IMG/VR virus record: IMGVR_UViG_3300045837_000080
Span: 1 to 54,242 of that record
Length of the DNA: 54,242 nt
Origin: a virus
Lineage: Duplodnaviria > Caudoviricetes
Reading direction: 5' to 3' (one strand)
The notes beneath the pieces are model-generated. The model was not told the DNA's origin. It saw nothing but the letters and a program-made list of their open reading frames with translations, and ran no database searches. This document shows positions 795 to 42,506 of this stretch, one piece after another; position 1 is the first letter of the stretch, and each line of letters starts with the position of its first letter. Position numbers and translations under genes: made by a program.

Positions 795-798
795 CCCT

Positions 799-881
799 GC
801 CAGGGTATCCAAGTCCGGCTAAAGGAATCCGACTGTAACTCGGCTGCTTCGGCTTCGGGGGTTCGAATCCCTCCCCTGGTA
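799..881 (+). tRNA. tRNA-Tyr(GTA)
   Basis: Acceptor GCCAGGG/CCCTGGT, anticodon loop CT-GTA-AC, type II variable arm GCTTCGGC, T loop GGTTCGAATCC. Confidence 0.93.
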
Positions 882-882
882 C

Positions 883-1678: not shown

Positions 1679-1684
1679 GTGAAG

Positions 1685-1813
1685 ATGCTCACCGTCCCGA
1701 AGGACTTGCGGCACGTCGTCCGTGATACGATGAGGTTCTGCGTGATCTGCATGGACATCTGCCGCCGGGGCGACCGGTGCGAATGCTGCAGGGAAGTGAT
1801 GCGTAATGGGTGA
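1685..1813 (+). CDS. small Cys-rich hypothetical protein (42 aa)
   Basis: Hand-translated MLTVPKDLRH...CVICMDICRRGDRCECC; overlaps the next start. Confidence 0.45.
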   Translation: MLTVPKDLRHVVRDTMRFCVICMDICRRGDRCECCREVMRNG

Positions 1814-2027
1814 GACGGAGAAGCGGCTCGCGGAGATCATCGACCGGAACGAGCGCAACGGGGTGCTGGTGACCATCCCCGGGTGGCGGGAGCACGACAT
1901 GACCGCCACGGTGATCCGGTGGAGCCCGGGGGACCCGAACGCCCTCGCCCACGCGATCATCAACAACGTCCAGGGGGAGACCGAGCTGATCCTGGACGGG
2001 AACAGGTTTTTCGTCAGGCGGGCGTGA
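1806..2027 (+). CDS. hypothetical protein (73 aa)
   Basis: GC3-rich codons; coupled to the upstream ORF. Confidence 0.6.
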   Translation: MGETEKRLAEIIDRNERNGVLVTIPGWREHDMTATVIRWSPGDPNALAHAIINNVQGETELILDGNRFFVRRA

Positions 2028-2034
2028 GCCCGTT

Positions 2035-2103
2035 GCCCCCGGTAACGGATTTTCCCCTGTCCCTCCGAAGGACGGGTGTCCGGTTCGACTCCGGGCGGGG
2101 GTA
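2035..2103 (+). tRNA. atypical tRNA-Arg(CCG), D-stem degenerate
   Basis: Acceptor GCCCCCG/CGGGGGT, 7-bp anticodon stem with loop CT-CCG-AA, T arm TCCGG-TTCGACT-CCGGG; only 69 nt with no canonical D stem. Confidence 0.75.
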
Positions 2104-2104
2104 C

Positions 2105-2260
2105 GTGAGGAAATGCCGGAGCTGCGGCGATCAGATGTCCAGGCACGTCCGGTTCGACGGGCGCAAGGTATGGGCGTGCCGCTGGTGCGCACGCCAGGAA
2201 ACCTTGTGGCTTCACCGCCGCGTCCGGGGGGGCAAGCAAGAGATGGACCAGGCGGTATGA
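2105..2260 (+). CDS. small zinc-ribbon-like protein (CxxC..CxxC)
   Basis: GTG start after the tRNA; CRSC...CRWC. Confidence 0.5.
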   Translation: MRKCRSCGDQMSRHVRFDGRKVWACRWCARQETLWLHRRVRGGKQEMDQAV

Positions 2261-2283
2261 GAGAGCCAGGCGGTCCAGGTAAT

Positions 2284-2356
2284 GGCGCTGTGCTGAAATG
2301 GTTAACAGAGCCGCCTGCAAAGCGGTTATTTGGGAGTTCGAATCTCCCCAGCGTCT
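2284..2356 (+). tRNA. tRNA-Cys(GCA)
   Basis: Acceptor GGCGCTG/CAGCGTC, U discriminator, anticodon loop CT-GCA-AA, T loop AGTTCGAATCT. Confidence 0.95.
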
Positions 2357-2358
2357 CG

Positions 2359-3918: not shown

Positions 3919-4043
3919 GCATTCTCCTTCTCCGGGCGCAGCCAGGTCACCTGCCGGCAGGTCAGGCACCTGATCCACCGGCAGGGGATGCTCTCGCAGT
4001 GCGGCTGGGTCTCTTCCCCGCCGCAATAGCCGCACGGTCTCAC
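3915..4043 (-). CDS. small Cys-rich protein (42 aa)
   Basis: GTGA overlaps at both ends; CGYC..C..C..CLTC. Confidence 0.5.
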   Translation of the reverse strand: MRPCGYCGGEETQPHCESIPCRWIRCLTCRQVTWLRPEKENA

Positions 4044-5002
4044 GCGGTCACCCGCATGGTCGCCGCCGCCCCGCCCGGCGCCGCCACCGAGACGTCATAT
4101 GCCCATCCGCTGACCAGCCCGCTGATCACCGCCTGGGTGGTTGCCACGGTCAGCTTGTCCGCGACGATCCCGTTCATCTGCCGTACCTCGACCGCGTACC
4201 CGGTCGCCGGCTTGCCTCCTGACAGCACCGCGTCCCAGGTGAGGGTAAGCGTCACGCCGCTGATCTTCAGGTTGCCCGGGGCGGGAATCCCGCCGGGAGC
4301 TTTGTCCAGTGCCGCCCAGGTAACCGGCTGGACCACCCCGTCGGCGATCATCCCGTGCGCCGACTGGAATGCCTTCAGCGCCAGCAGCGTCAGGTTCCCG
4401 AACAGCCCGTCGGTGATCAGCGGCGGCTTCTCTCCCTGCGCGTTCAGCCGCTGCTGCAGATGGGCGACCGGCGCTCCGCTCATCCCCTGGACGAGCACCG
4501 GCTCGGCGCCGAAGAAATCATCAGCCAGCAGGGACTGGTCGGCGTTCAGGCTTCCCTTGCGGTCAGTCCACTGGGTGCCGTCAGCAGGGATGCTCAGCAG
4601 CTTGCATGTCGCCGGACCGCAGATGTGCGGCGTCCCGGTGTAATGGGCGCTCCACAGCCGGAACGACGCCCGGGGAATCCCGGCAGCCTTGACCGCCGGG
4701 ATCAGGTCTGAGTTCATCAGCGACGCGCTCGCGTAGAAGCACGGGCGGCTAGCGCCGCGCGCCTTCTGCCGCTGGTACCATCCCGCCGCCATGGCGACGG
4801 TCGCCGCCCCGCTCTCGATGTCCAGGCAGTCCGCGTCATTGCCCAGCACGGAAATGCTCAGGTGATAGGCAGCCGGGAAATGCCGGGTCACCCAGTCGTA
4901 ATTCGGCTGGCTGCCCACGTGCCCGTCCACGTACCCGGCATATGCCTGCCCGCCGGGGGGGAACTGGTCATTGAACGCCGAGTCGTACATGGAAAGAGTC
5001 AT
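4040..5002 (-). CDS. endolysin (glycoside-hydrolase-like domain + PG-binding + FN3-like)
   Basis: YAGYVDG/LDIESG/WSAHYTG catalytic region; LQQRLN..DGLFG..T..ALKAFQ..DGVV..TW PG-binding domain; C-terminal FN3-like domain. Confidence 0.85.
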   Translation of the reverse strand: MTLSMYDSAFNDQFPPGGQAYAGYVDGHVGSQPNYDWVTRHFPAAYHLSISVLGNDADCLDIESGAATVAMAAGWYQRQKARGASRPCFYASASLMNSDLIPAVKAAGIPRASFRLWSAHYTGTPHICGPATCKLLSIPADGTQWTDRKGSLNADQSLLADDFFGAEPVLVQGMSGAPVAHLQQRLNAQGEKPPLITDGLFGNLTLLALKAFQSAHGMIADGVVQPVTWAALDKAPGGIPAPGNLKISGVTLTLTWDAVLSGGKPATGYAVEVRQMNGIVADKLTVATTQAVISGLVSGWAYDVSVAAPGGAAATMRVTA

Positions 5003-18657: not shown

Positions 18658-19115
18658 GGGCGGAAGCCCTCGATCGCGGCACGGCGCAGCTCGCCGTCCC
18701 GGATCGCTTCTTCGGTGGTCGGGCGCAGGAACGGGTGCTCCGGGTGCGGCAGCGCCGTGTGGTACCACGAGCCGCCCGAATCCGTCCAGTGCACCATCTC
18801 CCCGTTCGCCGGCTCCTCCACCACGCACCCGTATTCCAGGATGCGGGCGTAGTCCACCCGGTTCCCGGCAACAGCCGAAGTTCCCAGCGCGCTGTAGAAC
18901 ATGCCGCGCGCCAGGTTCCCCGAGGCGTACGCCGGCGGGTCCCCGGGAGGCGTGCGGTGCCATGCGCCTTTCGCGTGCCGGGTGCGCCGCAAGGTGATGT
19001 TCGCTGCCCGCTCGGCGATGTATTTCGCCATCGCCAGGGACGCCGCAGCCTCGCCCCGGCGCGCCAGGGCGTAGATGTCACCCCACCAGTCGCTCGCACC
19101 CGACGGGCTGCTCAC
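18645..19115 (-). CDS. HK97 gp10-like tail completion protein
   Basis: PGDPPA..SGNL, YARILEYG, HPFLRP motifs. Confidence 0.75.
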   Translation of the reverse strand: MSSPSGASDWWGDIYALARRGEAAASLAMAKYIAERAANITLRRTRHAKGAWHRTPPGDPPAYASGNLARGMFYSALGTSAVAGNRVDYARILEYGCVVEEPANGEMVHWTDSGGSWYHTALPHPEHPFLRPTTEEAIRDGELRRAAIEGFRPYDP

Positions 19116-20259
19116 ATGGCTTTGCCCTGCACGCGGTTCAGCAGCTCCCCGATCGCCGGAGCCATATATTCCTCCGCGACGAAATCCTTGTCGTAGCCGA
19201 GGGCGAACTCGCGCAGGTCAGCCCGGAGCTTATCGTCGGGGCGCTCCTTGTAGCTGCGCTCGTACGCCATGACCAGCTCCCCCAGGTCCGGGCGCGTCCA
19301 CCAGCCCTTGTGCACCCCGTTATAGAACGGGGTCCCGTCCACTGAGATGCCCAGCGGGTTCAGCTCCGGCATCGAGGAGGCGTCAGTGGTGATCACCGGG
19401 GTGCCGCATGCCTGCGCCTCGATGATCGGCAGCCCGAATCCCTCGCCGAATGAGCACGCGGACAGCACGTCGATCGCGTTGTACCATTCAGCGATCTCCT
19501 CCGGGGTGATCAGCCCGCAATGGTAGTGATACTGGCTGACCACTTTCACCCGGTCGCTGATCCCCAGGTTCTCCGCGAGGGCTTCCAGGTCCTGCCCGCC
19601 CGCCTGGTGCACTCCCGAATGCAAGGCGAGCAGCGTGTCCGGGTGCCGGTCCAGGAACTTGGCGAACGCGAGCATCTGCTCGGGGATCGCCTTGCGGATC
19701 GCGTCATTGTTGGCGGCGTTCATCCCGATGACGAAATTGTCCCCGAACCCGAGCCGCTCCCGGATCTCCTCCCGGTTGCCCAGCGGGCGGAACACGTCAG
19801 TATCGATCCCGTGCGGCACGTAGACCGCGTCCAGCCCGGCATCGCGGTACCGTTCCAGCCCGAACACGGACATGGCGATCACCTGCATGCCCGCTGCCTC
19901 GATGACGTTCCGGTCGGCAGTCGAAGACGGGCGGCAGTCGCACGGCAGCCAGTGCGCGACCGGCAGCTGGCGCAGGACATTCGGGTCCATCACCCACACG
20001 TCGCCCAGGTTGATCACCAGGTCCGGGCGCACGTACTTGGCATGATCGCCGAGGGAGTCCGAGCAGTAGTTCTGCCCGTACCCGGGGAGCACGGTGATCC
20101 CGTTCCACGTTGTCGGGGAGCCGCTCAGCCCGTAATAGGAGCTGACCACCACCTCGTGCCCCATCTCGGTCAGCTTGCGCACCCAGGTTGCCGTCTGGGT
20201 CCCGTACCCGCTAAACTGGGGGACCACGGGGCACAGCTGTGCCACATAATCCTTGCCAT
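19112..20259 (-). CDS. GT4-family glycosyltransferase, 5' end split by a 5-nt TTA-containing gap
   Basis: AGGAGG RBS + ATG 20259 gives MARIMWHSCAPWSPS; the other frame continues GYGTQ...; PHGIDT, RK, EGFGLPIIEAQACGTPVI motifs. Confidence 0.9.
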
Positions 20260-20272
20260 TCAGCACCACCTC

Positions 20273-20945: not shown

Positions 20946-21563
20946 ATGGAGAACTGGAAACCCGTCATCGGGTTTGAATTCTTCTATTCTGTATCCATTT
21001 CAGGACAGGTACGAAGCCTACGCCAAAGCAAGATCATGCGACCAAGCACCAGTAATACCGGCGGGTACCCGATGTATGTCTTCACCGTGCAAGGCAAGCG
21101 CACAGGGAAGTATGCACATCAGATGGTCATGGAGGCATTTGTCGGTCCATGCCCGGAAGGCATGGAAGTCCGTCACCTAGATGGTGATGCGAGCAACCCT
21201 GCATTGTTCTCCCCGTCTGGGGAGAGAAGGCTGGCATGGGGCACGAAAAGTGAGAATAACTTTGATGAGGTTCGTCACGGTACCCATTATGAAGCTTCAC
21301 GTACTCACTGTGAGAACGGTCATGAGTGGACAAAGGAAAACACCCGGATCGAACGTTACCCAGATGGAACCTTTAAAGCTCGCCGCTGTCGGGAATGCAA
21401 GCGACTGGATGCTGCACGCCTAAGATCTCAGCGTAAGACTGATATCCGCCGCTGCAAAGAACCTGATTGCGGGAAACCGTACTTCGGACGTAATTGGTGT
21501 TCTATGCACTATGCCCGCTGGTACACGAAACAGAAAAAACTCACAGCAAGTGAAGCTGCTTAG
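20946..21563 (+). CDS. NUMOD4/HNH homing endonuclease
   Basis: ENWKPVIGFE.FYSVS..GQVRS, HQMV.EAF.GP, VRHLDG, WGT.SEN, THC.NGH. Confidence 0.92.
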   Translation: MENWKPVIGFEFFYSVSISGQVRSLRQSKIMRPSTSNTGGYPMYVFTVQGKRTGKYAHQMVMEAFVGPCPEGMEVRHLDGDASNPALFSPSGERRLAWGTKSENNFDEVRHGTHYEASRTHCENGHEWTKENTRIERYPDGTFKARRCRECKRLDAARLRSQRKTDIRRCKEPDCGKPYFGRNWCSMHYARWYTKQKKLTASEAA

Positions 21564-22965: not shown

Positions 22966-22978
22966 ACGTTCCTTCCTC

Positions 22979-23007
22979 TGGACCTAACTCCAGAATGGCG
23001 TTATAAT
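22979..23007 (+). promoter_or_regulatory. sigma70-type promoter for leaderless HNH gene
   Basis: TGGACC-17-TATAAT, 6 nt before GTG 23014. Confidence 0.65.
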
Positions 23008-23013
23008 TTCCCT

Positions 23014-23544
23014 GTGAGAGAAACCTGGAGACCCGTTCCTTTCGGCAGGGTCTACGAAGTGAGTGATTACGGGCGTCTCCGCAACGCGAAGACAGGAAAA
23101 TTCCTCACAGGAACCATCAATGAAGACGGGTACTGCAGGGTTTATCTATCCGACGGCAACCTTCATAAGAGCTTCTATCTGCACGTACTTGTCGCCAGGG
23201 TTTTCCTTGGTCCTCGCCCCGCAGGACAGCAGGTCAGGCACTGGGACGGGAACCCGCTCAACAACAGGATTACTAACCTGCTGTACGGCACTCCCTCCGA
23301 GAACGTTCGCGACACTGTCCGGTACGGAAATCACGTACAGGCTCGGAAGACTCACTGTCCTGACGGTCACCCGTACGACAAGGAGAACACCTATGTCTTC
23401 CCGGACGGGCGCAGGCACTGCAAGACCTGCCGACGTAAAGCGTTTCAGCGCCATGACGAGAAACGCAGGAGGATCACTGTCAACGGGAAGCGCATCTGGA
23501 TTCCCGTTGACGAATCGCTATGCGCGGAAAATCTCCCACAATGA
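23014..23544 (+). CDS. NUMOD4/HNH homing endonuclease
   Basis: ETWRPVP..YEVSDYGRLR, HVLVARVFLG, VRHWDGNPLNN.I.NL.YGT.SEN, KTHCPDGHPY. Confidence 0.92.
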   Translation: MRETWRPVPFGRVYEVSDYGRLRNAKTGKFLTGTINEDGYCRVYLSDGNLHKSFYLHVLVARVFLGPRPAGQQVRHWDGNPLNNRITNLLYGTPSENVRDTVRYGNHVQARKTHCPDGHPYDKENTYVFPDGRRHCKTCRRKAFQRHDEKRRRITVNGKRIWIPVDESLCAENLPQ

Positions 23545-24234: not shown

Positions 24235-25231
24235 CTAAATGGTCCTGCGGAACGGGTGGATGAGAAGCTCCGCCTCGGAGTTGAGCCCTTCGATGTCCCC
24301 GCCCGTGTGCTGGGAATGACCCCCGATGTCATGGATGGTCGTGGTGGTCGCGCCCCGGGTGAGGGCTTCGGCGACGCAGAACAGGATGCACGCCTGCTCC
24401 ACGGTCGCGGGCAGCGTGGTGACCAGCGTCCCGGGGGCGTGCGGGTAGACCAGGTTCGATGACAGGGTGAGCGTCCCCGGACCGGCGGTCGCGCTCGCCG
24501 AGGTGACGTGCACGGTCTCCTGCTGCCCGGAGTCCTTGATCACCCCGGTCGCCCCGGTCACCCCCTGGTAGCTGGTGATCCCCCAGCCGGTGCAGTCATC
24601 GACGGTCAGCGTGTTCGTCCCGGAGGATGCCTGGGCGGTGATCTCCGCGTGCGGGAACCCGTTGATGTAAGAGATCATGCAGATCCACCCGTTGCGCCCC
24701 ATCGACCAGTCGATGTACCCGGGTCCGATCAGCACCACCTGGGAGCCGTAAGCCTCCGAGCTGGGGCTGGATGACCCGTAGATCCCGATCGGGGGGTACT
24801 CGGGCTCCGCCCATCCGGCAGGCAGGGTGGTGAACTTGCGCGGGAACACGTTGTTCGCGCACACCTGCACCTGGGTGACCTGCAAGATGGGAAACCGGGA
24901 CATGACAGCGCGGGCGTTGAAGCTGGGGGTGTCGTTGAACCAGAACGAGTTGCTGACCCCGCCGCCGCCCGCCGGTCCCACGGTCAGCCGGAAGTCCGGT
25001 CCGTGCAGCACCTCGGTGTCCACGGTCGCCCGCAGCACCTGGTTGCAGTACCCGTTGACTTTCGCGGTGGCGCGCTGGCACATGTTCCACCATTCGGCTT
25101 CGTTCTGCGCCGGGGTGACATCGCCGCCGATAGGAATGGATGTCCAGTCCTAAATCGATCCCCGTGGGCGCCGTGGTCAGCGTCACAGGGCTGATATAAG
25201 GAGCACCCGCCGTAGGCATCGGGGTTGTCAT
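24235..25231 (-). CDS. head-tail connector/adaptor-like protein, 5' end split by a 7-nt TTA-containing gap
   Basis: GGAGG RBS + ATG 25231 gives ...PYISPVTLTTAPTGID; the other frame continues WTSIP...RATAKVNGYCNQVLRAT...VEQACIL...AELLIHPFRR. Confidence 0.8.
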
Positions 25232-25250
25232 GGGACATCACCTCCCGTCC

Positions 25251-26450: not shown

Positions 26451-26539
26451 GGTATGCTTGCCCGTGAGCCCGGGGGTTCTCTTTGCTGCCGCTTCCAGGA
26501 CCCCCGGGCTCAGCCCTGGAACCTGCAGGGAGGTATCAC

Positions 26540-26872
26540 GTGACCCGGACCAGGAAGCCGGTCCCCAGCAGGTGGTGGAAGCACCCTTACTGCTGGTACT
26601 GCGGCAAGAAAGTCTTCAAGTCCCGCAGCCCTCGCGCCAGCAACAACCCGGACATGGGTACCGTCGAGCACATCCCGCCGCTGTGGATCACCCGGCTCCC
26701 CGGGGGGGAGAAGCTGGAGCAGCGCAAGGTGCTCGCCTGCCGGGCATGCAATCACGCCGAGGGCGTGAAAGTCACCCGGCTGTTCCCCGCTTTCTTCATC
26801 CAGCTGTGGAACGGCGGCAGCCTGCCCAGGGAGAAGCTCATGCTGCCGCCTGGCGGCAGGTCTAGCCAGTAG
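26540..26872 (+). CDS. HNH endonuclease
   Basis: GGAGG RBS + GTG; CWYCG..TVEHIPP..VLACRACN. Confidence 0.8.
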   Translation: MTRTRKPVPSRWWKHPYCWYCGKKVFKSRSPRASNNPDMGTVEHIPPLWITRLPGGEKLEQRKVLACRACNHAEGVKVTRLFPAFFIQLWNGGSLPREKLMLPPGGRSSQ

Positions 26873-27809: not shown

Positions 27810-28502
27810 CTAGAACTTAGTGAAAAGCCACTGCAGATCCGGGCTGAACATCCGGCGGAGCAAGGAGACCTGGCCGGACATGCGCTGCGCCCGCCAGCGG
27901 GTGAACTCAGCGAAATCAGGATCGCCGTCCGCCTGCTCCGCCCGGCTGTACGTCTCATCCCGCACCGCGCCGGGCGTCACCGAGTAATGCTCGTGGCGGA
28001 TGACCGCGCGGGGGCAGAACCGCATCAGCCCCGAGCGCTTGCCCAGCTCCGCCCACACGTTGTCGATGTAGAAGTGCCGGAAGCCCGGCTCGGCGAACCA
28101 GCCGAGCACCGTGATCACGTCACTGGACATGAGCACGTGCTCGGGGACGTCATAACGCCGCTTGTCATCGGGGTAGACGATCCCCGTCCCGCCTAGCGCG
28201 TCCAGCGTCCCCATCATGAGCAGGTCCCACCCGGGGGTGACGAACACCTGGTCATCGGCAGCCAGCATGAGCGCCCGGTACCGGGGCGCGAGCTTAAGGG
28301 CGGCGTCGTTGATCGCGGTGACCAGCGAGTCGCGCTCCACGGTCATCACGTCGGCGCCGATGCCCGCATAGGAAACATCGTCATCGTCGATGACCAGCAC
28401 CAGGTCCACTTCGCCCAGGGCGGTCTCCCGGAACGAGGCGATGCACTTTTCTGCCAGCTCCCGGCGCTTCCTGGTCGGGATGAACACGCACAGCTCGCTC
28501 AT
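27810..28502 (-). CDS. GT2/GT-A-fold glycosyltransferase
   Basis: VFIPTRKR, VIDDDD, AADD (DxD-like), HFYIDN motifs. Confidence 0.85.
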   Translation of the reverse strand: MSELCVFIPTRKRRELAEKCIASFRETALGEVDLVLVIDDDDVSYAGIGADVMTVERDSLVTAINDAALKLAPRYRALMLAADDQVFVTPGWDLLMMGTLDALGGTGIVYPDDKRRYDVPEHVLMSSDVITVLGWFAEPGFRHFYIDNVWAELGKRSGLMRFCPRAVIRHEHYSVTPGAVRDETYSRAEQADGDPDFAEFTRWRAQRMSGQVSLLRRMFSPDLQWLFTKF

Positions 28503-28852
28503 GTCAGGATCGGCGTCCCTAGTCTCTTGGTGTCCGTCTCGTACGCTTGCCCGCTGCGCGGACCCCTGGTGAACACGAGCACCGTGGTGTCCTCCAGTGC
28601 CTTCCAGGCATGCGGGATGCCCGCCGGCTCGGTGATCAGCTCGCCCGGACCATGCTCGCCCAGGTGCACCCCGTCATCCTCGGTCCAGGCTGTCTGCAGC
28701 CTCCCGGAGACGACGTACGTCCACTGCGTGGTCCGCATGTGAACGTGATTGCCCCGGACGCTGCCAGCTCTCGTGAAGATCTCGGTGACCGCGTCGATGC
28801 TTCCCAGGAGATCCTGGATGACGCCTCTTTCATCCTGGTATCTATCAGCCAT
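28499..28852 (-). CDS. cupin-fold NDP-sugar isomerase/epimerase
   Basis: DERG, RGNHVH, YVVSG, P.GIPH motifs. Confidence 0.8.
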   Translation of the reverse strand: MADRYQDERGVIQDLLGSIDAVTEIFTRAGSVRGNHVHMRTTQWTYVVSGRLQTAWTEDDGVHLGEHGPGELITEPAGIPHAWKALEDTTVLVFTRGPRSGQAYETDTKRLGTPILT

Positions 28853-30044
28853 TTCCCAGCACCTCCCGTACCTTGCTGAACGGGACGGGACCTTTCACCG
28901 TGTAGACGACCGGCTCCCGGCACTCGTCGCTGATAATGCGAGGCTCAGGAAGGGGGATGATGATCCCTCCCATGTACCCCATCTGCCGGATCTTCGGGAC
29001 GATGTCGTCCCTGATATGCCAGGACAGCAGCAGCGCGTACGGGGGCTGGTCCTGCTTGAGCCTGATCTCATCGACGACCGGGATCAGCGTCCCGGGGATG
29101 TTCGTCCCGATCTTCTCGCTCCACGGCACCTCGCATACGCAGTGCAGCCACTGCCCCAGACCCGCGTAGTGGATGAGCGTGGTCGCCCGTGTCGTCGCCC
29201 CGATCCCGTAGACGGGACCGCGAAGGGACGAGAGCAGCTCCCGCAGGCTCTCACGTGCCCGCTGAGCCTTTATCTCCAGCCCATCGGGCTCTTTCATGGC
29301 GGTGAGCCGGAACGAGCCTCCGTGCGCCTGGAGGCGCTCTGCGTCCACGACGGTCAGCCCGTGCATCTCCAGCAGCCGGGTCAGCGTCCCCAGGGTGTAA
29401 TAGCGGAGATGCTCGTGGTAGACCGTGTCGAACTGCAAGCCCCTGGAGATGGAATTCCAGTCGTGGTTCTCGGTGATGAAGACCCCGTCGTCATCCAGCA
29501 GCGTGATGATGCCTTCGAGGAAGTCATGCGGGTCAGGTACGTGAGCCAGGACATTGCATGCCGTAATCACGGATGCCCTCCGGACATGCGAGATGTCCAG
29601 CCCCAGCCGCGCCGTGAAATACTGCTGCTGTACCGGAATACCCTCGGCGCTGATCTTCCGCGCCTGCCCGGTGGGCTCTACCCCGAGCAGCCCCAGTCCG
29701 GGAGCGACCTTCCGGACTGCTCGCAGCAGCGTCCCGTCGTTTGCCCCGATGTCAATGACCAGCCCGCCGCTCCCGCTCACGTGCACGGCGATCTTCTCCG
29801 CGAGATCAGCGAAATGCCGCTGACGTTCCTTCGAGTTCCCGGCGGCATACAGGTGATCCTGCGGGAAGACTTCCTCTTTCGGCGGGATATGCGACAGCTG
29901 GACCAGCTGGCATTTCTCGCACCGGATCAGCTTCAGCGGGTAGCGCTTGCCGTTGTCGTTCTCCGCGAGCGGCTGGGTCCCCAGGTCAAGGACAGGCTGG
30001 AAGTTACGCCAGCCGCACAGCCCGCAGGCGGTCACCTCACCCAT
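28845..30044 (-). CDS. NDP-sugar C-methyltransferase-like protein
   Basis: CGLCG..VLDLG.QPLA, CQLVQL, DIGANDGTLL, NVLAHVPD, FDTVYHEH.RYY, HGGS, P.YALLLSWH. Confidence 0.88.
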   Translation of the reverse strand: MGEVTACGLCGWRNFQPVLDLGTQPLAENDNGKRYPLKLIRCEKCQLVQLSHIPPKEEVFPQDHLYAAGNSKERQRHFADLAEKIAVHVSGSGGLVIDIGANDGTLLRAVRKVAPGLGLLGVEPTGQARKISAEGIPVQQQYFTARLGLDISHVRRASVITACNVLAHVPDPHDFLEGIITLLDDDGVFITENHDWNSISRGLQFDTVYHEHLRYYTLGTLTRLLEMHGLTVVDAERLQAHGGSFRLTAMKEPDGLEIKAQRARESLRELLSSLRGPVYGIGATTRATTLIHYAGLGQWLHCVCEVPWSEKIGTNIPGTLIPVVDEIRLKQDQPPYALLLSWHIRDDIVPKIRQMGYMGGIIIPLPEPRIISDECREPVVYTVKGPVPFSKVREVLGNG

Positions 30045-30993
30045 TGGCGCGGTACCAGGCGACTGTCCTGGCAAGCCCGTCATCGAAAGGCACCTCGGGG
30101 TAATAGAAATTCCCGAGTTCCTTCATCTTGCCCATGTCCGGGAGCCTGCGCGGCGGGGAGCCTTTCGGTAGCTTCCCGGGAATCAGCTTGATATCCCTGC
30201 CGTAACAGGCGGCGACGCCGTGAGCCACATCGGAGATTGTCCGCTCCTCCATCGTGCCTACGTTGTAGATGCCCTGCTCGCCCTGCTCCAGCAGGAGCAT
30301 GAACTGGTCAATGCAGTCATCGATATAGCAGAAGCTGCGGGTCTCTTCGCCCGTTCCCTGGATGGGAAACCGGATGATCCCCCCGGGATGCTCCTGGATG
30401 AGCCGGTTCATCCGGATGCAGAACTCGGGGATGACATGCTCGCGCCCCATGTCCGGACCGTAGATGTTATGCGGGCGGGCGATGATCACCCGGTCCAGGA
30501 CGCCGGTCCGCGCCCATGCCAGGGACATGATCTCGCTGGCGATCTTCCCGCCGCCGTAGGAGTACCGGGGGTTCAGCGGGTCCGGCACGGTCAGCGGGAT
30601 CGTCTCCGGGGTGGGGACGATACTTGCCACCTGGTACGCCTCGGAAGAGGAGACGAGCAGCAGGTCAGCGCAGCCCGTGGCTTCGCAGGCAGCCAGGATG
30701 TTCAGCATGCCCCGCATCGCCACGTCCAGCACCTGGCGCGGCTCGGAATAAAACGACTGGGTTCCCTGCAGGTATGCCAGGTGGATGACGCAATCGCATC
30801 CGTGCATGGCGAGGTTCACCATGTACGGGTCGCGGACATCCCCGCTGACGATATCGCATCCTATTCCTGCCAGCCGCTCCGGCTTCCCCCGGGAGAAGTC
30901 GTCAAGGACGACGACTTCGCATCCCTGTGATGCCAGGCGCCTGACCAGGTTACTGCCTATGAACCCTGCCCCGCCGGTTACCAGATAGCGCAC
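30037..30993 (-). CDS. NAD-dependent NDP-sugar epimerase/dehydratase (extended SDR)
   Basis: VTGGAGFIGS, SSSEAY, YGGGK, RPHNIYGP, TRSFCYIDD. Confidence 0.92.
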   Translation of the reverse strand: MRYLVTGGAGFIGSNLVRRLASQGCEVVVLDDFSRGKPERLAGIGCDIVSGDVRDPYMVNLAMHGCDCVIHLAYLQGTQSFYSEPRQVLDVAMRGMLNILAACEATGCADLLLVSSSEAYQVASIVPTPETIPLTVPDPLNPRYSYGGGKIASEIMSLAWARTGVLDRVIIARPHNIYGPDMGREHVIPEFCIRMNRLIQEHPGGIIRFPIQGTGEETRSFCYIDDCIDQFMLLLEQGEQGIYNVGTMEERTISDVAHGVAACYGRDIKLIPGKLPKGSPPRRLPDMGKMKELGNFYYPEVPFDDGLARTVAWYRANG

Positions 30994-33987: not shown

Positions 33988-36732
33988 TTAGTCAGTCTTG
34001 CCTTGGTATTTCAGGAGAGCGGCGTATGCAGCTTCCCGCTCCGCAGGATTCTCGCTGGTGCGCCATGTCCGCTCAAGCTGGCGCATCATCATTCCCTGGA
34101 CGCTCTTGGAAATCTCCGCCTGCTGCACGATGCCCGCCGGGCGTGTCGTGTGCATCGCGGGATTGAGCGCCAGACCGGGGAACGCGGTGGTCGAAGGATC
34201 GCGCTCGTTCGCCAGCGCCTCCCAGCGCCGGTCGTGCACTTCCTCTTTCTCGCGCAGGCTGTCCACCTGCTGCTTGTAGGAGGCATTCTCGGACAGCAGA
34301 TCCTCGATCCGCTTGTCCTGGGCGGCGATCCTCTCCTCGAACGGGGTGAGGATGTCGCTCATCATCGTCTTCATCACCTCGGGGGTGAGAGACTTGGAAA
34401 CCTCGGGCTCCGGCGGCGCGCTCACGACCGCTGCCTTAGCCGCCGTCTCGGCAGGGGGGATCTCGATGCCCAGCGCCTTCAGCACCGCATCGCGGGAGGT
34501 GATGCCCTTCTGCACCTGCCGCTGGAGGTTCTCCGCGTACTTCTTCGCCGTCCGCTTGGACAGCTTGGTACGCGCCTGCTCCTCGGTGATCAGCCCGGCA
34601 CGGACCTGCTTCTCCAGCTTGGAAATGTATTTGTAAACATCGCCCAGGACGGCAGTTTCCGGAGTCTCGGTCATCTTGCCGAGCCCGACCGGCAGGTTCA
34701 GGGTGTGACCATCCTCCTGCCGGTACGCATCTTGTTCGATCATGGGGCAGCTGGCGGGGAACATGTGCGCCAGGTGGTCGTGCATCATCGACAGAGCCCG
34801 GCGAGCCTTGTCCTTCTCCAGCACCGCGTAGCGGATCTGGGTGGGGACCCCCTGCTGCTCGGGGTACTCGAAGCTGGACTTCATGTGGCTCGGGCTCGGG
34901 GACTGGTGCGCCGAGGTGAGCGGGGGACGCCCGAAGCTGTGCGCGTTCGGGGAGCCGTCCGGGATGCGCGGCGCGGTCGTCGGGCTGCCGTAGCCCTGGG
35001 AGTGCGCGGCATGCCCGTCAGTGATGCACGGGCGGTTGTACTTGCGCGGGCTCATCGCGCCCGGGGTGGGGAAGCTGGACACGCCCGGGTTCGCGTCCCG
35101 GAACGCCTTGTGCGCCTCCGCCCGGAAGTCGTTGAGCATCCCCTGGTCGGAGTTCCTCAGCAGGACGGCGGACTGCCATGCCTGCTGAGCCTCGGTCGCC
35201 TCGGCGATCGACTTCCCGGCGGCTGCCGCCAGCGCCTTGCGCTGCCACAGCCCCTCATCCACCAAGGTGGTGAAATCGGCGAACGGGAAGAACTCTGCGG
35301 TCTGCTCAGGGGAGAACGCCGGGCAGGTCATATCGTGCATGATGCCCAGGTCGGTGTCGATCCCGATCGTCTTGAACCGCATGACCGCCGACTCGCTCTT
35401 CATGTGCGGCTTGGCGGGGTATTCTTTCAGGTCGCCGAGCGGAGCCGGGTTCATGTCAGCGGGCTCTTCCGCGCCGCTGGCGGTCTTCGGGTCCATGTCG
35501 CACTTCTCAGCGTCGCCCTGCACGCTCTTGGCGTCATCGCCGTCAGCGGGCTTGTTCAGCCACGGGGGCAGCTTCTTGCCTTTCTTGCCCTTTGCGGGCT
35601 TGGGAGCCTTGGCTGCCTTCCCGGTCGCCTGGTCCTCGACCTGGTCGTTGTCCTCGTCGCTGGACGGCTTGGGGATGCTCTTGCCCGGGGTGGGGTCAGA
35701 GCCGCCGCCGGCAGCCGGGTCCTTGATGATCGCCGGGACGGCTTCCTTCACCTCGGCGGTGACCTCCGGCGCCGGGATCACCTTCTCCGCGCCGTCTTCC
35801 AGCGGGTTGGCGACGCCCAGCTCCTTCGCCCGCCGCGCGATCAGCTTCTTCGCGCCCTCGGCGTTGCCGTGCCCGGTGCGCGCCAGGTGCGCGGCGTTGT
35901 GCAGGTCGCCCTCGTTGGCGATCGGGTAGGAGCCGTCCGCCAGGGCGTGCCCGGCGGAGGCGAGGCTGCGGCGCTCGGCGGTGCTCACGTCCCGCTTGTA
36001 GACCGCCCGCTCAGCCTCGGCGATCGCCTTGAGCGCGACATCGTCGTCCCGCTGCTTCGCCATCTTCTCCTGCATGATCCGCCACATGTCGTTCGGGGTG
36101 AAGTCGATCTTCATCGACTCGAAATCGAAGGAGGAGATGTCGCTGACCACGGCATCGGACTTGGTCACCTCGGCATCCAGCGCCTTGGCGATCGCCTGCT
36201 CATCGCCGAACACCTCCCCGGTGAACTCGGCATGCCCGTCGGAGGCGCTCTTGACCAGCTGGAACCCGCAGGAGGCATTGGCGGGGCGGTCGACCAGGGA
36301 GATCTCCACGATCTTCCCCGACTTGATGATCCCGCCGCGCGCCTTCCCGGTCAGGTCCCGCTCGATCGTCGGGTTGGCGATCCCCACGCTGTAGGCGCGC
36401 AGCACTCCCTTGGACACCAGCCGCTTGGCGACCGGCTCGACGATCAGGGACTTCACCCAGGTTGCCCCGGACTCATCCGTGCTCGCCTCCACGCCGATCC
36501 CGGCGGGGTCGCGCTGCGGGTTGTGCTGCACCCGGACGTTCCCGCCCGTGGACAGCCAGTCGCTGATCGCCTTCGAGCTGAACCCGGGGTCCACGATCTG
36601 CATGTCGTGGTCGACGGAGCCGTCTGTGGCTTTCCCGTACACCATGAGATCGCCGTCGGGGGTGCTCTCCACCTTCTCGATGCCAAAACTCACGTACGTG
36701 AGTTCGCCCGTCCCGGTGAGAGTAGCTGCCAC
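33988..36732 (-). CDS. prohead protease-scaffold fusion
   Basis: VYGKAT..VDHD.QIV, VRVQHN, AYSVG, EISLVDRPAN (HK97-type protease); long charged coiled-coil C-terminus. Confidence 0.85.
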   Translation of the reverse strand: MAATLTGTGELTYVSFGIEKVESTPDGDLMVYGKATDGSVDHDMQIVDPGFSSKAISDWLSTGGNVRVQHNPQRDPAGIGVEASTDESGATWVKSLIVEPVAKRLVSKGVLRAYSVGIANPTIERDLTGKARGGIIKSGKIVEISLVDRPANASCGFQLVKSASDGHAEFTGEVFGDEQAIAKALDAEVTKSDAVVSDISSFDFESMKIDFTPNDMWRIMQEKMAKQRDDDVALKAIAEAERAVYKRDVSTAERRSLASAGHALADGSYPIANEGDLHNAAHLARTGHGNAEGAKKLIARRAKELGVANPLEDGAEKVIPAPEVTAEVKEAVPAIIKDPAAGGGSDPTPGKSIPKPSSDEDNDQVEDQATGKAAKAPKPAKGKKGKKLPPWLNKPADGDDAKSVQGDAEKCDMDPKTASGAEEPADMNPAPLGDLKEYPAKPHMKSESAVMRFKTIGIDTDLGIMHDMTCPAFSPEQTAEFFPFADFTTLVDEGLWQRKALAAAAGKSIAEATEAQQAWQSAVLLRNSDQGMLNDFRAEAHKAFRDANPGVSSFPTPGAMSPRKYNRPCITDGHAAHSQGYGSPTTAPRIPDGSPNAHSFGRPPLTSAHQSPSPSHMKSSFEYPEQQGVPTQIRYAVLEKDKARRALSMMHDHLAHMFPASCPMIEQDAYRQEDGHTLNLPVGLGKMTETPETAVLGDVYKYISKLEKQVRAGLITEEQARTKLSKRTAKKYAENLQRQVQKGITSRDAVLKALGIEIPPAETAAKAAVVSAPPEPEVSKSLTPEVMKTMMSDILTPFEERIAAQDKRIEDLLSENASYKQQVDSLREKEEVHDRRWEALANERDPSTTAFPGLALNPAMHTTRPAGIVQQAEISKSVQGMMMRQLERTWRTSENPAEREAAYAALLKYQGKTD

Positions 36733-38042: not shown

Positions 38043-41000
38043 TCACTTCGCCTCCCAGCGGTCACAGGTATCCCCGGGCTTGATGTGCCCCATCACCAGG
38101 TCGCATGTCCCGCCCGGGTGGAACATGACGCAATTGCCGCATTTGCGGTTCCCGGTCGCATGGCGGTAATTCACGCTGTCCTTGCTCAGGCTCGGACGCC
38201 TTGCTGCCTTATTGGCGGGGTCGCTGCCCTGGTGCAATTGGCTGGAATGGGTTTCCCATGCTGCCTGGCGGTCCGCCTCGTCGATGTTCCCCAGGTACGC
38301 CAGGACATCCTGCTTCAGGTTCCTGCGCGCCAGTGCCCGGTGATGCCCGTCCACGAGGAACGCCTTGTGCGTGGACGGCTCCTGGACGAGGATAGACGGG
38401 GCGACATGCCCGTCATGAGCGGCGATCTGCCGCTCGAATTCCTTCACCTTGCCCGGCTGGTGACTCGCAGCCCACTTGTCGATGTCGTCGGTGTCCACCC
38501 GGTCCCACGGCACCATCACCGGTCCCGTCCACCGCGCCCTCTTCACCCACTCGATGGCTTTCGGAGGGAAATTGGCTGCCATCTGGAGGTAGACATGCTC
38601 AGCATCGACAGGGTTCGGGTCGTTCAGGTTCTCCACGTTCTTGAGCTGCATGCGCTCCGCCAGTGCCCGAGGGATCACATAGCTGTTATCCAGCCATACT
38701 GGAGGAGTGTCCCAGCTGGCGCTAGGGACAAGCCCGCCCTTGGAGTACAGGACGTTCCCGTCCTCGCCCTGATGCTGGACAGCCTCCGCCGGATCATAGG
38801 TCTCCGGGGATTCCGGACGGGGTGTCTCCGGGTGAGGCAGCTGCGGCTTGGGGGCTCCCACGATGGGGCGGACGCCCTTGATCTTGCCCCCGGGCACTGA
38901 TTGCGCGCCCATCCCGGGGCTTCCCGCGATGCCGCCCTGCGGGTTCTGCCCGTCCTCGCTGGACGGGAACCTCTTCGCCGGCTTGTTCTTCGCCCGGCGC
39001 TTCGGATATCCCTCGTCATCCGTGCCCCGGGGGTAGACGTGGGCAACCCGCTCATCCGCCCGGTCCTGGGGTCCCTGGCGCGGAGGTTCCGTTGCGCCCA
39101 TCTCCCCCTGGGCTTGCCCGCCGCCGCCCCTGGTGTTCTGCGGAGCCCCGTCGCTGCGCCGGGGCAGCTGCACCTGGGCACCGCCGCCGGGGGCAGGATA
39201 CGGGTAATTGACGCTATCCTGCGGATGTTCCAGGACCAGCCACTCGCCATTTTCGGTGCGGACATTCTGGGCTGCCTTGGATGCGTTATCCTTCAGGCGG
39301 ATACCCTTCTCCCAGTCATCCCGGAATTTCGGCGACAGGTCGAGATCCCCGATTTCCTTCTTCCGGAACCAGGCAGCGCCCAGGGTTTCCTCCGGGGTGC
39401 TCCCGTTCATCTTCGGGTGGAAATACTCAGTGTCGCACAGGTACAGGTAGACCTGCGCCCCGTCCTCGACATGGTGGAAGGTCTTCGCCACGGTCAGCGC
39501 GGGGATGTCCCCGATCTCCTCGGTGACCTCCCGTACCGCCGCATCCCACGGAGCCTCGCCCACGTGCGGCTTGCCCCCGGGCATGCCCCAGCTGCCGTCT
39601 GAGCGCTGCTGGAGCAGGAACCGGGTCTTGCCGTCCTCATCCTCAGCGCGCAGCAGCAGCCAGCACAGCCGGTTCTCGTCCTCCCGGGCTGCCTGCCGCG
39701 CCTCGTCCATCGTCATGTAGCGCTTGCCGAGATGCGCCTGCGGCGGGGTCAGCTCCATCCCGGCAGGGGCGGACACGCACCGGCACATCGGGTGCAGCGG
39801 CGGCTCCCCGCCCGGGTAGATGGCATCCAGCGGGATGGTCCCCGCGTTTTCTGCCGCCTTGCAGGTCTCGCACTCGCGGTCATCGGGGGCTGCCAGCAGG
39901 TGCTTGCGGGTCACCCCGTGATCCTTGTACGCCTGGATAGCCCCGGCGTTCATCGCCCTGGCGACCTCGGTGCGGGCGATCATCTCGCTGCGGGCGGAAG
40001 AATTGCCCAGCCCGGTGCGGGACACCTTGTCCAGCCAGTGCTGCCCCTCGGTGCCCAGGAACGCCTCGAACGCCGCCCCGGAGTGGTCGGCGGCGAAATC
40101 GGGCTCATTCCCGGTGACCAGCGACCGTGCCGATTCATATCCCAGGTCCCACGCGGACTTCCACATCGGGGTCATCGCGCCGGAGAACACGTCCCTGCTC
40201 GCATCGGAGATCATCCCGGTCAGCACCGGGGGAGAGACGAACAGCTCTCCGGACGCGGCGTCCTTGCGGATCTGCTGCCCCCTGATCTCGGCGTCGGTGA
40301 ATGCCTGGGAGATCAGCTCCTTGTACCGCCCGACCAGCCCCAGGTCATGACGCCACCCCGGGAACTCCGCGAGTTCGCTCGCAGCGCTTTTGTGCTGCTC
40401 CGGGAACTGCGCACCTTCTGCTTTCGCGGCGAACAGGGCGGCGCGGTCCACCGCGATGCCCGGGGGAATCCCCTGCCCGATCGCCTTCTGGATCATCGGG
40501 AGCACGGAAGGGTTGATATGCTGCGGCTCCCATGACCCGATGTCCCTGCCCTTGCGCAGGTGGCGCTTGAGCGAGTCCAGCTCCGCCTCTGCCGCCTTGT
40601 TGCGCATGCGTCCCTGGGTGGGGGTCCTGCCCTCGCCGCGCTTGCGGCTGCCCGCGACCGGGGAGCGGGACGGGGTCCCGCCCGTGCTGCCCCGCACCGG
40701 GCGCTGCAGCTGGGCAGCTGCCGCCTCGTGCGCCGGGGTGATGCTCGCCCTGCTGGGCGCCAGCGGCGCCGGGTGGCTGCCGTTCGGCTTGGTACCCCCG
40801 GTGCCCCGGCGCACCGACGGCTGCTTGGATGTCGTCTTCTTCTTCGAAGAGCTGCTGCTGCCCTGTTGCTGCCCTTGCAGTGCCGCCTGGATCAGCTGGG
40901 GCGCCATCGAGAACGGGACGGGACCCTGCTGGGTCATCACGATCGGCTCGGAGGTCTCCTGGAGCCCCCACGGGGGCAGGTCCAGCCGCTCCCGCACCTC

Positions 41001-42506
41001 GTCGATCGAGGAGATCCCGTTCTGGATCTGGTCCACGCCCAGCTGGGTGATCGCCTGCTTGTCCTCGTCATCCACGAGCCCCTTGAACTCGAACTGCATG
41101 TCCCGCTGACCGCAGATATCCTGGATGACGTAATTGAAGATATCGCAGAGGAATTTCAGCAGCGGACGGGTGGACATGCGGGACTTGATGTCCCGGTTCT
41201 CCTGCCCGGCGAACCGGATGCCCGCCGCCGAGGGTCCGGTCGGGGTCCCCCCGACATTCGGGATGATCCCCAGTTCATAGGGCTGAACGTCGAACGCCAT
41301 GCACACCTGGTTCATCACCAGGTAGTCGAAAGAATCGCTCAGGTCCACCGGGCGTTGCGGGTCGACTTTGCTCCCCGGCGGCAGGACGATCACCTTCAGG
41401 TGGTACGCCGGGTCTCCCGCGAGAGAATTCAGCGCGCTTTGCAGTTCCCCGATCTGGGTGGGGGTGATGCCCACGTCCCCCGGGGAGATGTAAACGGCGG
41501 GAATCGTCCCCTCGGTGAAGTAGTCGAGCTGGAACTCCTGCTTCTGCAAGCCGGAGATAATCGGCAGCAGCGCTCTTTCCACCGGGGGGAACCCGTACGG
41601 GGTCTCCCGGGTCACCCAGTAGGGGGCGTACAGCATCACATCGGAGCTGAAAGCATTTACTTCCGCGCCCTGGAGCCCCGCCTCCTCGATGTCCGTGCCC
41701 ATCGCGATCGTCATGTAATCGCTGCGGGGGACCCCGTAGAGGTACTGCTGGTAAGCGGGCGCCGGAGGGGCGGGGTGACCGCCGTGCAGGTCGATCAGCG
41801 GGCGGATCGTCGGACCGGAGATCAGGTTCAGGCTGTCCAGGTCCGACCCGAGAAGCCCCCTGCCGCCCATCCCGAAGCTCGCCCCGTATTTCGGGCGAAA
41901 CACGATGGAGAGCGCGTCGAAGACGAAGATCTCCTCCAGCAGCGCCGCCATGAACGAATCGAAATTCCAGAAATCGGGGTCCGGGCGGCGGAAGAAGCGG
42001 ACGAACTTGCCCTTGCGCTCCCCGAAGAACCGGTTAGCCTCCCGGTCGTTCCGGTAGGCTTTCGCCGCCTCCGTGGTCATGGTGATATCCCAGTCGAGCC
42101 CCCGGATCTCCTCGATCCGCAGCTCGATCGCTGCCCGCGCCACGCTGTACTTGGTGCTGATCGTCCTCAGCTGGTCGAAGCTCGCCAGCTTCAGCCCCTC
42201 GGTTCCCGGGGGAGTGGGCAGGTTCCACGACGGGCGGTACTGCCAGCGCCTGGGGCTGGGGAACTGCGCCCCCGGGTAGGGCTGGTCGACCGGGGTGGGC
42301 TGGATGGGCGGGGACGGGGCGAACGCGCCGTCGGAGAACACCGAGGCGGGGCGCTCCAGGAACGGACCGTAGACGTTGGAGTAATTCCCCTGGGCGTACA
42401 TCTCCGCCATCGCCGGGCTGATCCTGCCCATGCCGGAATTCGACGGGGCGGCAACGTATCTCCCGCCTGCTTTCAGTGCCGCGACGATCGCGCCCGGTCT
42501 GGCCAA
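38043..42506 (-). CDS. portal protein fused to MuF (SPP1 gp7-like), NUDIX, ParB-like and HiPIP-like domains
   Basis: Portal PYGFPPVE/YFTEG.IP/VC.AF.V.P.ELG/DEVRE; IARTEVARA..C..C..PPLHPMCRC; WGMPGG..GE....AVREV.EEIG; LVDGHHRA; CGNCVMF..C..V.G.I...C..W. Confidence 0.88.
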   Translation of the reverse strand: MARPGAIVAALKAGGRYVAAPSNSGMGRISPAMAEMYAQGNYSNVYGPFLERPASVFSDGAFAPSPPIQPTPVDQPYPGAQFPSPRRWQYRPSWNLPTPPGTEGLKLASFDQLRTISTKYSVARAAIELRIEEIRGLDWDITMTTEAAKAYRNDREANRFFGERKGKFVRFFRRPDPDFWNFDSFMAALLEEIFVFDALSIVFRPKYGASFGMGGRGLLGSDLDSLNLISGPTIRPLIDLHGGHPAPPAPAYQQYLYGVPRSDYMTIAMGTDIEEAGLQGAEVNAFSSDVMLYAPYWVTRETPYGFPPVERALLPIISGLQKQEFQLDYFTEGTIPAVYISPGDVGITPTQIGELQSALNSLAGDPAYHLKVIVLPPGSKVDPQRPVDLSDSFDYLVMNQVCMAFDVQPYELGIIPNVGGTPTGPSAAGIRFAGQENRDIKSRMSTRPLLKFLCDIFNYVIQDICGQRDMQFEFKGLVDDEDKQAITQLGVDQIQNGISSIDEVRERLDLPPWGLQETSEPIVMTQQGPVPFSMAPQLIQAALQGQQQGSSSSSKKKTTSKQPSVRRGTGGTKPNGSHPAPLAPSRASITPAHEAAAAQLQRPVRGSTGGTPSRSPVAGSRKRGEGRTPTQGRMRNKAAEAELDSLKRHLRKGRDIGSWEPQHINPSVLPMIQKAIGQGIPPGIAVDRAALFAAKAEGAQFPEQHKSAASELAEFPGWRHDLGLVGRYKELISQAFTDAEIRGQQIRKDAASGELFVSPPVLTGMISDASRDVFSGAMTPMWKSAWDLGYESARSLVTGNEPDFAADHSGAAFEAFLGTEGQHWLDKVSRTGLGNSSARSEMIARTEVARAMNAGAIQAYKDHGVTRKHLLAAPDDRECETCKAAENAGTIPLDAIYPGGEPPLHPMCRCVSAPAGMELTPPQAHLGKRYMTMDEARQAAREDENRLCWLLLRAEDEDGKTRFLLQQRSDGSWGMPGGKPHVGEAPWDAAVREVTEEIGDIPALTVAKTFHHVEDGAQVYLYLCDTEYFHPKMNGSTPEETLGAAWFRKKEIGDLDLSPKFRDDWEKGIRLKDNASKAAQNVRTENGEWLVLEHPQDSVNYPYPAPGGGAQVQLPRRSDGAPQNTRGGGGQAQGEMGATEPPRQGPQDRADERVAHVYPRGTDDEGYPKRRAKNKPAKRFPSSEDGQNPQGGIAGSPGMGAQSVPGGKIKGVRPIVGAPKPQLPHPETPRPESPETYDPAEAVQHQGEDGNVLYSKGGLVPSASWDTPPVWLDNSYVIPRALAERMQLKNVENLNDPNPVDAEHVYLQMAANFPPKAIEWVKRARWTGPVMVPWDRVDTDDIDKWAASHQPGKVKEFERQIAAHDGHVAPSILVQEPSTHKAFLVDGHHRALARRNLKQDVLAYLGNIDEADRQAAWETHSSQLHQGSDPANKAARRPSLSKDSVNYRHATGNRKCGNCVMFHPGGTCDLVMGHIKPGDTCDRWEAK

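Follow-up and report, generated by a model that had tools for sequence, protein, structure and literature searches.

We report a gene whose coding sequence is interrupted by a short block led by a TTA codon in the virus record IMGVR_UViG_3300045837_000080 of IMG/VR (Duplodnaviria, Caudoviricetes), which was analyzed over its full 54,242 nucleotides (nt) and is called the window below. The gene lies at 24235-25231 on the minus strand and probably encodes a head-to-tail adaptor of the virion. Its structure is best explained by the synthesis of one protein of about 329 amino acids (aa), and programmed ribosomal bypassing at the UUA codon is very likely the process that joins the two coding segments. 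Judged from sequence, this is a known but very rare kind of bypass, described for the large terminase gene of phage phiHau3 (Antonov et al., 2023, PMC10732093), and it is new here in an adaptor-like gene of an uncultured soil phage lineage.

Anatomy of the interruption

The elements of the site, all on the minus strand (-), are as follows.

25241..25245 (-): Shine-Dalgarno sequence (SD) GGAGG, read directly from the sequence, 9 nt 5' of ATG 25231
25154..25231 (-): 5' coding segment, codons 1-26 (MTTPMPTAGAPYISPVTLTTAPTGID), from ATG 25231-25229 to the take-off GAT
25156-25154 (-): proposed take-off codon GAT (D26), preceded by ACG GGG ATC, read directly from the sequence
25150..25153 (-): coding gap TTAG (TTA 25153-25151 and G 25150), missing in uninterrupted homologues
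25147..25149 (-): proposed landing codon GAC (Asp), readable by the same tRNA as the take-off GAT
24235..25146 (-): 3' coding segment, WTSIP..., from TGG 25146-25144 to the stop TAG 24237-24235, in the +1 frame

Spacing of the GGAGGTGATGCC type likewise precedes the start codons of relatives. The TAG at 25152-25150 is a stop codon of the landing frame and closes the +1 frame just 5' of GAC; between this TAG and ATG 25083, the +1 frame contains no ATG, GTG or TTG. The annotated 282-aa open reading frame (ORF), 24235..25083(-), which begins at ATG 25083, is the tail of the 3' coding segment. Decoding TTA in frame leads instead into a 211-aa ORF, 24596..25231(-).

The hop had been proposed in a sequence-only reading of the window, and its coordinates hold on the minus strand: GGAGG precedes ATG 25231, which opens 26 codons up to GAT 25156-25154, TTA stands at 25153-25151, GAC at 25149-25147 puts TGG in frame with the 282-aa ORF, and reading TTA does yield the 211-aa off-frame product. 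Its further suggestion that this site and a second one share a core TTTAG is not supported, as the motif occurs 7 times in the window against 13.9 expected and is not enriched. None of the other six occurrences resembles a bypass site. The one at 20211-20215(-), probably the other site meant, is the sole other minus-strand TTTAG near a gene start, and there the glycosyltransferase gene 19112-20269 reads through TTT AGC with a normal N-terminus. The plus-strand occurrences at 3322, 5537 and 42778 are antisense to minus-strand genes. A TTA at 31884(-) was also considered as a second site and is out of frame. The feature that does recur, as the related loci show below, is a TTA (or TAG) directly 3' of the take-off codon, not TTTAG.

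Homologues read one protein across the gap

A protein query of 331 aa (P0002) was made by reading the gap as a single step (TTAG=L) and searched against a large protein collection, giving 1,021 matches at E ≤ 0.001. Among the best 120 of these 1,021 matches, most are 323-331 aa long and cover 100% of the query, so that homologues starting at Met 25083, which would have spoken against the hop, are not what is seen. Uninterrupted homologues align APTGIDW over the GAT TTA G GAC TGG of the window, which therefore carries 7 extra bases at this point. A hop from GAT to GAC gives APTGIDW(TSIP), exactly the sequence of the uninterrupted homologues and the one that had been predicted for the junction.

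The length of this junction is nearly invariant. Exactly three residues (G-I/V-D/G) separate APT from W/F in 96 of 97 full-length database homologues, and T23 and G24 are invariant. The exception is P0004 (75% identity, the closest among the matches listed), which reads GID-LPD-W, with a 3-residue in-frame insert starting with Leu. A hop would add no residue at the junction, and a +1 shift after Leu would add two. The N-terminal peptide, whose conservation the sequence-only reading had put at stake, is conserved both in the homologue alignment and in the substitution pattern given below. In an AlphaFold model of the protein, residues 11-20 have a mean pLDDT of 87 and form a helix and a strand, in keeping with an N-terminal peptide that is ordered within the protein.

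The lineage is that of an uncultured soil phage. The DNA of the gene has no match among 50,697 phage records, and tblastn of the protein returned only a partial match at 28% identity, in Thermoanaerobacterium phage THSA-485A.

An allelic series of gaps in related loci

Related loci were collected from viral contigs (28), metagenome contigs (80) and species genomes (1), for a total of 110 sequences including the window, and the two halves of the protein were mapped onto them by tblastn. The 3' anchor was found in 86 of the 110 and the 5' anchor in 81. Nine further loci with a 3' anchor were excluded because their sequence ends before the site. The resulting set comprises 62 distinct loci, namely 60 scored by script after dropping rows identical over the region, and two (L085 and L094) scored by hand. 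The species-genome scan contributed one distant locus, L109, from an Actinomycetes metagenome-assembled genome (32% identity, intact), which is uninformative on the host.

The gene is intact in 27 of these 62 loci, carries a gap of 5-26 nt in 33 and has another frame defect in two. The 33 gapped loci display 26 distinct gap forms, all at the same few codons: after T23, G24, I25, D26 or S28. The first codon of the gap is TTA in 29 loci and TAG in three (L064, L070 and L094); the gap of L048 is CAACCGTAG. A gap identical to that of the window, GAT|TTAG|GAC, is present in L002, L019, L020 and L045, whose proteins are 55-71% identical to that of the window over residues 28-110. With the same gap in four divergent contigs and 25 other forms in relatives, the site does not behave as the sequencing indel that the sequence-only reading had named as a way for the hop to be wrong. 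Two loci, L063 and L068, have two gaps ten codons apart, GAT|TTAGCGG|GAC and GGT|TTAG|GGC, the second at G34. Frame defects without TTA were also seen: L076/L078 carry two additional nt following TGG TCT, and L079 lacks one nt some 30 codons downstream; these may be true defects, errors or another kind of shift.

The gaps differ in what they do to the reading frame. Those of 7, 10 and 16 nt shift it by +1 and those of 5, 8, 11 and 26 nt by +2, while the in-frame gaps of L048 (12 nt, TAG) and L065 (15 nt, TGA) contain an internal stop. In addition, a stop codon of the landing frame lies directly 5' of the landing codon in L058 and one codon further 5' in L064, so that frameshifting at TTA would terminate in these two loci. 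Since the gaps are +1, +2 or in frame with a stop, bypassing is the sole single mechanism that rescues all forms.

The +2 and stop-containing gaps also bear on the most direct alternative to bypassing, in which a +1 frameshift or quadruplet-like reading at UUA_G inserts Leu and shifts by one base to give ...TGID-L-D-WTSIP..., two residues longer than the homologues. The frames permit such a shift in the window (where it yields P0002) and in every relative with a 7, 10 or 16 nt gap, and for phiHau3 too it was a matter that sequence alone could not settle (PMC10732093). We nevertheless find it improbable. The shift fails for the +2 gaps (L015, L023, L070, L069, L012, L058, L064, L094 and L046), as does quadruplet reading, and for the in-frame gaps containing a stop (L048 and L065). 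It would also add 2-5 residues to a junction whose length is otherwise fixed, and a tRNA that reads UUA re-pairs poorly on UAG. In the phiHau3 terminase, the peptide recovered by mass spectrometry showed bypassing, not a +1 shift (PMC10732093).

For the bypassing that we favor, the take-off and landing triplets were compared across the 26 forms. The two triplets agree at position 2 in 21 forms, at position 1 in 12 and, if one pyrimidine in place of another is accepted as compatible, at position 3 in 23; these are tallies made by hand over forms that share ancestry and are not independent. Fully synonymous pairs are GAT->GAC, ACT->ACC, GGT->GGC and GGT->GGT; near-cognate pairs are ACT->GCC, GGT->AGC/CGC, ATT->CTC, GAT->GGC, ACA->TCA/CCA/GCA/ATT and TCT->AGC. 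T is the usual last base of the take-off codons and C that of the landing triplets, a pattern that suggests the exchange of a wobble pair for a Watson-Crick pair at landing.

The population sampled with the window was viewed at the level of contigs. The contig from the possible source run does not differ from the window at the site. Another run of the same sample (X5) gave a 145-nt contig at depth 5.1, with two substitutions and a 1-nt deletion at 25148. It reads GAT TTA GGC TGG, a 6-nt in-frame variant, putatively of a co-occurring strain, known from this one contig; its landing triplet GGC is also found in L009 and L038.

Selection on both coding segments

Both segments flanking the gap evolve as coding sequence. 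Across codons 2-23 of 29 interrupted loci, the synonymous (pS) and nonsynonymous (pN) differences are 0.64 and 0.148, giving a pN/pS of 0.23, against 1.71 and 3.29 when these bases are translated in the two wrong frames. In interrupted loci, purifying selection acts on the 5' mini-ORF. In 22 intact loci, codons 2-23 have a pN/pS of 0.45; the tighter constraint in interrupted than in intact loci may hint at a role for the nascent peptide, in a comparison confounded by shared ancestry. Downstream of the gap, interrupted relatives show conservation of the landing frame over residues 28-49, the stretch that precedes Met50. The pN/pS computed for residues 29-49 was left aside, as it was calculated without gaps and is distorted by indels.

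These observations leave little room for a split gene, in which translation would yield a 26-aa peptide and, from Met50 (ATG 25083), a separate protein that might assemble with it non-covalently, or in which only the 282-aa form would function. Gene callers do give forms of 278-282 aa from this Met in several relatives. We consider the split very improbable, given the conservation of residues 28-49 in the landing frame. Position 50 is Leu or Ile, not Met, in L016, L020 and L046, so that restart at Met50 is not general. Moreover, ATG 25083 is not preceded by GGAGG, and a ribosome in the zero frame does not terminate near the gap, where 211 codons are open.

Scarcity of TTA

TTA is nearly absent from the genome around the site. 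In the 41 ORFs of the window that bear a coding signature (13,349 codons), it accounts for 3 of 1,049 Leu codons, one of the three being in a likely shadow ORF, and in the body of the gene across the 62 loci for 5 of 1,170 Leu codons. A TTA at the head of the gap is therefore more than chance. Four of the five gene-body TTA codons (L034, L048, L056 and L071) occupy the very place of the stop codon, after ...RRT[IV], and each is complementary to the TAA with which a convergent ORF ends. Decoded in the standard way, they would lengthen these proteins by 24 residues up to 100 or more. UUA may accordingly be poorly decoded or stop-like in the host.

Five tRNA genes are clustered at one end of the contig, 34-2357(+): Arg-ACG, Val-CAC, His-GTG, Tyr-GTA and Cys-GCA. 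An ARAGORN scan of the window found no Leu tRNA among the five and no anticodon loop out of the ordinary, and a UUA or quadruplet decoder encoded by the phage on this contig is thus unsupported.

That the 7 nt stem from an error of assembly, or from a frameshift mutation in a phage undergoing decay, with no full-length adaptor made, is hardly credible: ordinary frame defects do exist in contigs of the family (L076/L078 and L079) and the exact 7-nt form is covered solely by the possible source run, but the identical gap recurs in the four divergent contigs, purifying selection persists on both segments, and random indels would not start with so rare a codon in 29 of 33 loci.

Proposed mechanism

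Relative to its uninterrupted homologues, the mRNA of the window would carry an insert of 7 nt made up of a 4-nt unpaired gap, UUAG, and the landing codon. In the mechanism that we propose, the ribosome would initiate at AUG 25231 and decode 26 codons. It would then stall, the P site being occupied by peptidyl-tRNA-Asp paired to GAU and the A site by UUA (25153-25151), a very rare Leu codon. The peptidyl-tRNA would unpair, the mRNA would move by 7 nt and the same tRNA would re-pair on GAC, exchanging a G:U wobble on GAU for a G:C pair. Decoding would restart at UGG to give ...APTGID-WTSIP..., as in the uninterrupted homologues. Whereas the anatomy of the site, its conservation in relatives and the rarity of UUA are observed, we infer the stall, the re-pairing step, their efficiency and any regulatory role. 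One such role might be to confine adaptor production to times of scarce UUA-decoding tRNA, by analogy with the proposal made for the phiHau3 terminase.

Several points count against programmed bypassing and should be weighed with it. The hop in gene 24235-25231(-) is proposed here from nucleotide sequence, and the scarcity of UUA-decoding tRNA is deduced from the codon usage of the phage. A stimulatory RNA structure was not found: the 161-nt fold of 25090-25250(-) has an energy of -60.1 kcal/mol and a z-score of -0.81; likewise, no GGAGG that could act as an internal SD lies between the start codon and the gap. In phiHau3, standard decoding terminates soon after UUA, whereas in the window 211 codons without a stop follow TTA in the zero frame, and standard decoding would therefore give a long aberrant product. 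Landing is only near-cognate in many relatives, so that classical re-pairing on a matched codon leaves some of the variants unexplained. Finally, as the 145-nt contig is the only coverage of the site from another run, the exact 7-nt form rests on the source assembly and on the contigs of other samples.

Comparison with known bypass systems

Natural bypassing is known from very few systems: gene 60 of phage T4 and its relatives, the byp elements of yeast mitochondria, and three Streptomyces phage or prophage terminase genes (PMC10732093). The last are the large terminase of phiHau3 (g6/g7/g8) and the terminases of the StrepC.1 and S. catenulae prophages, for which UUA-mediated short bypassing was described by Antonov et al. 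(2023, PMC10732093), who credit a 2013 proposal by Smith et al. Their UUA-led gaps, two of 10 nt in the phiHau3 terminase and 7 nt in each of the two prophages, were found in 3 of 100 terminase genes (PMC10732093). The phiHau3 terminase gave a full-length product in Streptomyces, and its junction peptide was identified by mass spectrometry in E. coli with UAA replacing UUA (PMC10732093). A stop of the +1 frame placed in the gap went with higher bypass efficiency, and local mRNA structure and an internal SD are presented in that report as candidate stimulators only (PMC10732093).

The site in the window shares the anatomy of these cases. In both, an in-frame UUA stands directly 3' of the last codon shared with uninterrupted homologues (D26 in the window), and the frame-disrupting block is short, 7 or 10 nt, with flanks that are adjacent in homologues (7 nt in the window against the 27 intact loci). 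In the phiHau3 genome record the two sites read GGC|TTACTCC|GGT|AAG and TCT|TTAACGG|TCC|ACG, with synonymous take-off and landing codons (GGC/GGT and TCT/TCC) like the GAT/GAC of the window, though this does not extend to many of its relatives. Both genomes are high in GC and almost devoid of TTA, and both affected genes are essential late genes, the one in the window being a predicted adaptor. The presence of two gaps in one gene is paralleled in L063 and L068. Judged by its anatomy, the site belongs with the UUA-led bypasses of the phiHau3 type.

It also departs from them. The gene is adaptor-like rather than a terminase and comes from an uncultured lineage. The gap falls at codon 27, when the nascent chain would presumably still be in the exit tunnel. 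Interruption is rare among the terminases, whereas here it affects 33 of 62 loci in 26 forms, many with near-cognate landings. Unlike phiHau3, the window has neither a nearby zero-frame stop after UUA nor a significant local RNA structure.

Gene 60 of T4 is a more distant parallel. Its 50-nt bypass is associated with a cassette carrying the homing endonuclease MobA, against which the insert protects (Manning and Atkins, 10.1101/2022.08.31.505936). The window resembles it in having a matched take-off and landing codon, a poorly decodable A-site codon (a stop or a 'hungry' codon) and free-standing HNH endonuclease genes in the region. T4 gene 60 differs in its 50-nt gap, its take-off stem-loop, its internal SD and its defined nascent-peptide signal; its take-off codon is followed by a stop, and its matched pair is GGA. 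With a gap of 4 nt plus the landing codon, a sense codon in the A site and no significant structure, the site does not belong to the T4 gene 60 type and would only work in a similar way.

Byp elements are bypassed inserts present in many copies in coding sequences, with a non-decodable codon after the take-off codon; they measure 27-55 nt, are mitochondrial and are spread over many genes. The gaps described here are of 5-26 nt and are concentrated in one short stretch of one gene. The byp elements of Magnusiomyces capitatus mitochondria are cited in the phiHau3 report (PMC10732093). Full-text searches of the literature turned up neither a case of bypassing in a gene for an adaptor or connector nor one of UUA-led gaps outside the terminases.

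Predicted function and genome context

The product of the interrupted gene is probably a head-to-tail adaptor of the HK97 gp6 / SPP1 gp15 kind, a plausible but not proven assignment drawn from the modeled fold and the position of the gene. The AlphaFold model, built with 98 sequences, has a pLDDT of 82.6 and a pTM of 0.81. Its matches 2, 4, 5 and 8 in BFVD are named 'Gp6 domain containing protein' or 'Head to tail adaptor' (E 4e-7 to 1e-4, query TM 0.24-0.43, target TM up to 0.72), the top match being nameless. Weaker matches in PDB include the necks of phage 812 and of a GTA (E 4.5e-3 to 2.4e-2). Searches of Pfam and PHROG with the protein matched no family. The label of head-tail connector given in the sequence-only reading thus keeps moderate support from the fold matches and from a location between head and tail genes, and gains none from Pfam or PHROG.

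The genes are listed below in minus-strand order, starting from the highest coordinate.

48034-49710 (-): terminase
38043-42506 (-): portal-MuF fusion, a 1,487-aa ORF
33988-36732 (-): candidate capsid gene
(-): sugar-modifying genes
(-): SAP-domain protein
24235-25231 (-): interrupted adaptor-like gene
Downstream of the adaptor-like gene: small ORFs and HNH genes
Downstream of the adaptor-like gene (-): long tail-like ORFs
4040-5002 (-): endolysin

The ORF at 38043-42506(-) combines matches to a portal, a MuF-like minor head protein and a NUDIX hydrolase in one frame. Genes for a nucleotide-sugar epimerase, a C-methyltransferase and two glycosyltransferases are interspersed with the virion genes, at 27810-30993(-) and 19112-20269(-), and their products might glycosylate virion proteins.

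Turnover of the gap and HNH endonucleases

The state of the gap changes often. On a tree of 61 loci built from the residues downstream of the site, at least 27 changes are needed, and near-identical genes can differ in gap state (L042/L058, L010/L014, L048/L071, L053/L068 and L064/L074). Between L042 (intact) and L058 (26-nt gap), codons 1-23 are identical at 49 of 69 nt, whereas from 6 nt before the D28 codon onwards 305/306, 292/300 and 299/300 nt are identical. Near identity downstream and divergence over codons 1-23 place a recombination breakpoint on the gap.

Three ORFs of the window match HNH endonucleases.

22975-23544 (+): ORF with HNH_3 and NUMOD4 domains
20946-21563 (+): ORF with HNH_3 and NUMOD4 domains
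26483-26872 (+): weak HNH match, below the Pfam cutoff

They are free-standing ORFs, interspersed with the structural genes and encoded on the other strand, in a stretch of lower GC content. An HNH-like ORF is also inserted just downstream of the gene in L042 and is missing from L058. Overall, HNH-like ORFs adjoin four intact loci (L010, L022, L026 and L042) and five interrupted ones (L009, L012, L053, L064 and the window), and no association between HNH presence and gap state is visible in these data, in which most flanks are ≤ 1.5 kb.

One possible account of this turnover, which we put forward as a tentative and rather doubtful one, is an arms race in which the DNA encoding APTGIDW is targeted by site-specific nucleases, for example of the HNH kind, and repaired with small insertions or by recombination, such that the survivors are those that ribosomes can hop. 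On this account, an insert would survive only if its first codon, UUA or a stop, cannot be decoded and its last triplet allows the peptidyl-tRNA to re-pair. By analogy with T4 gene 60 and MobA, one may speculate that the gap itself protects against an endonuclease.

Implications

If such an arms race has taken place, it would explain the clustering of the 26 gaps, the at least 27 changes on 61 tips, the near-identical genes that differ in gap state and the breakpoint on the gap. A corollary would be that the host in effect leaves UUA unassigned or treats it like a stop, as the four relatives with TTA at the stop position also invite one to consider.

The related loci provide a natural allelic series of 26 forms, with Asp, Ile, Gly, Thr or Ser at take-off, hops of 5-26 nt, and varied frame outcomes and landing triplets. 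Because take-off, length, frame and landing all vary within the series, the rules of short-range bypassing become directly testable. Candidate rules are that pairing at positions 2 and 3 would be enough for landing, and that a take-off codon ending in U and a landing codon ending in C would be preferred. Gene callers truncate or mis-extend this gene, as with the 282-aa form from Met50 in the window, and in-frame TTA codons should therefore be checked when annotating phages of high-GC hosts.

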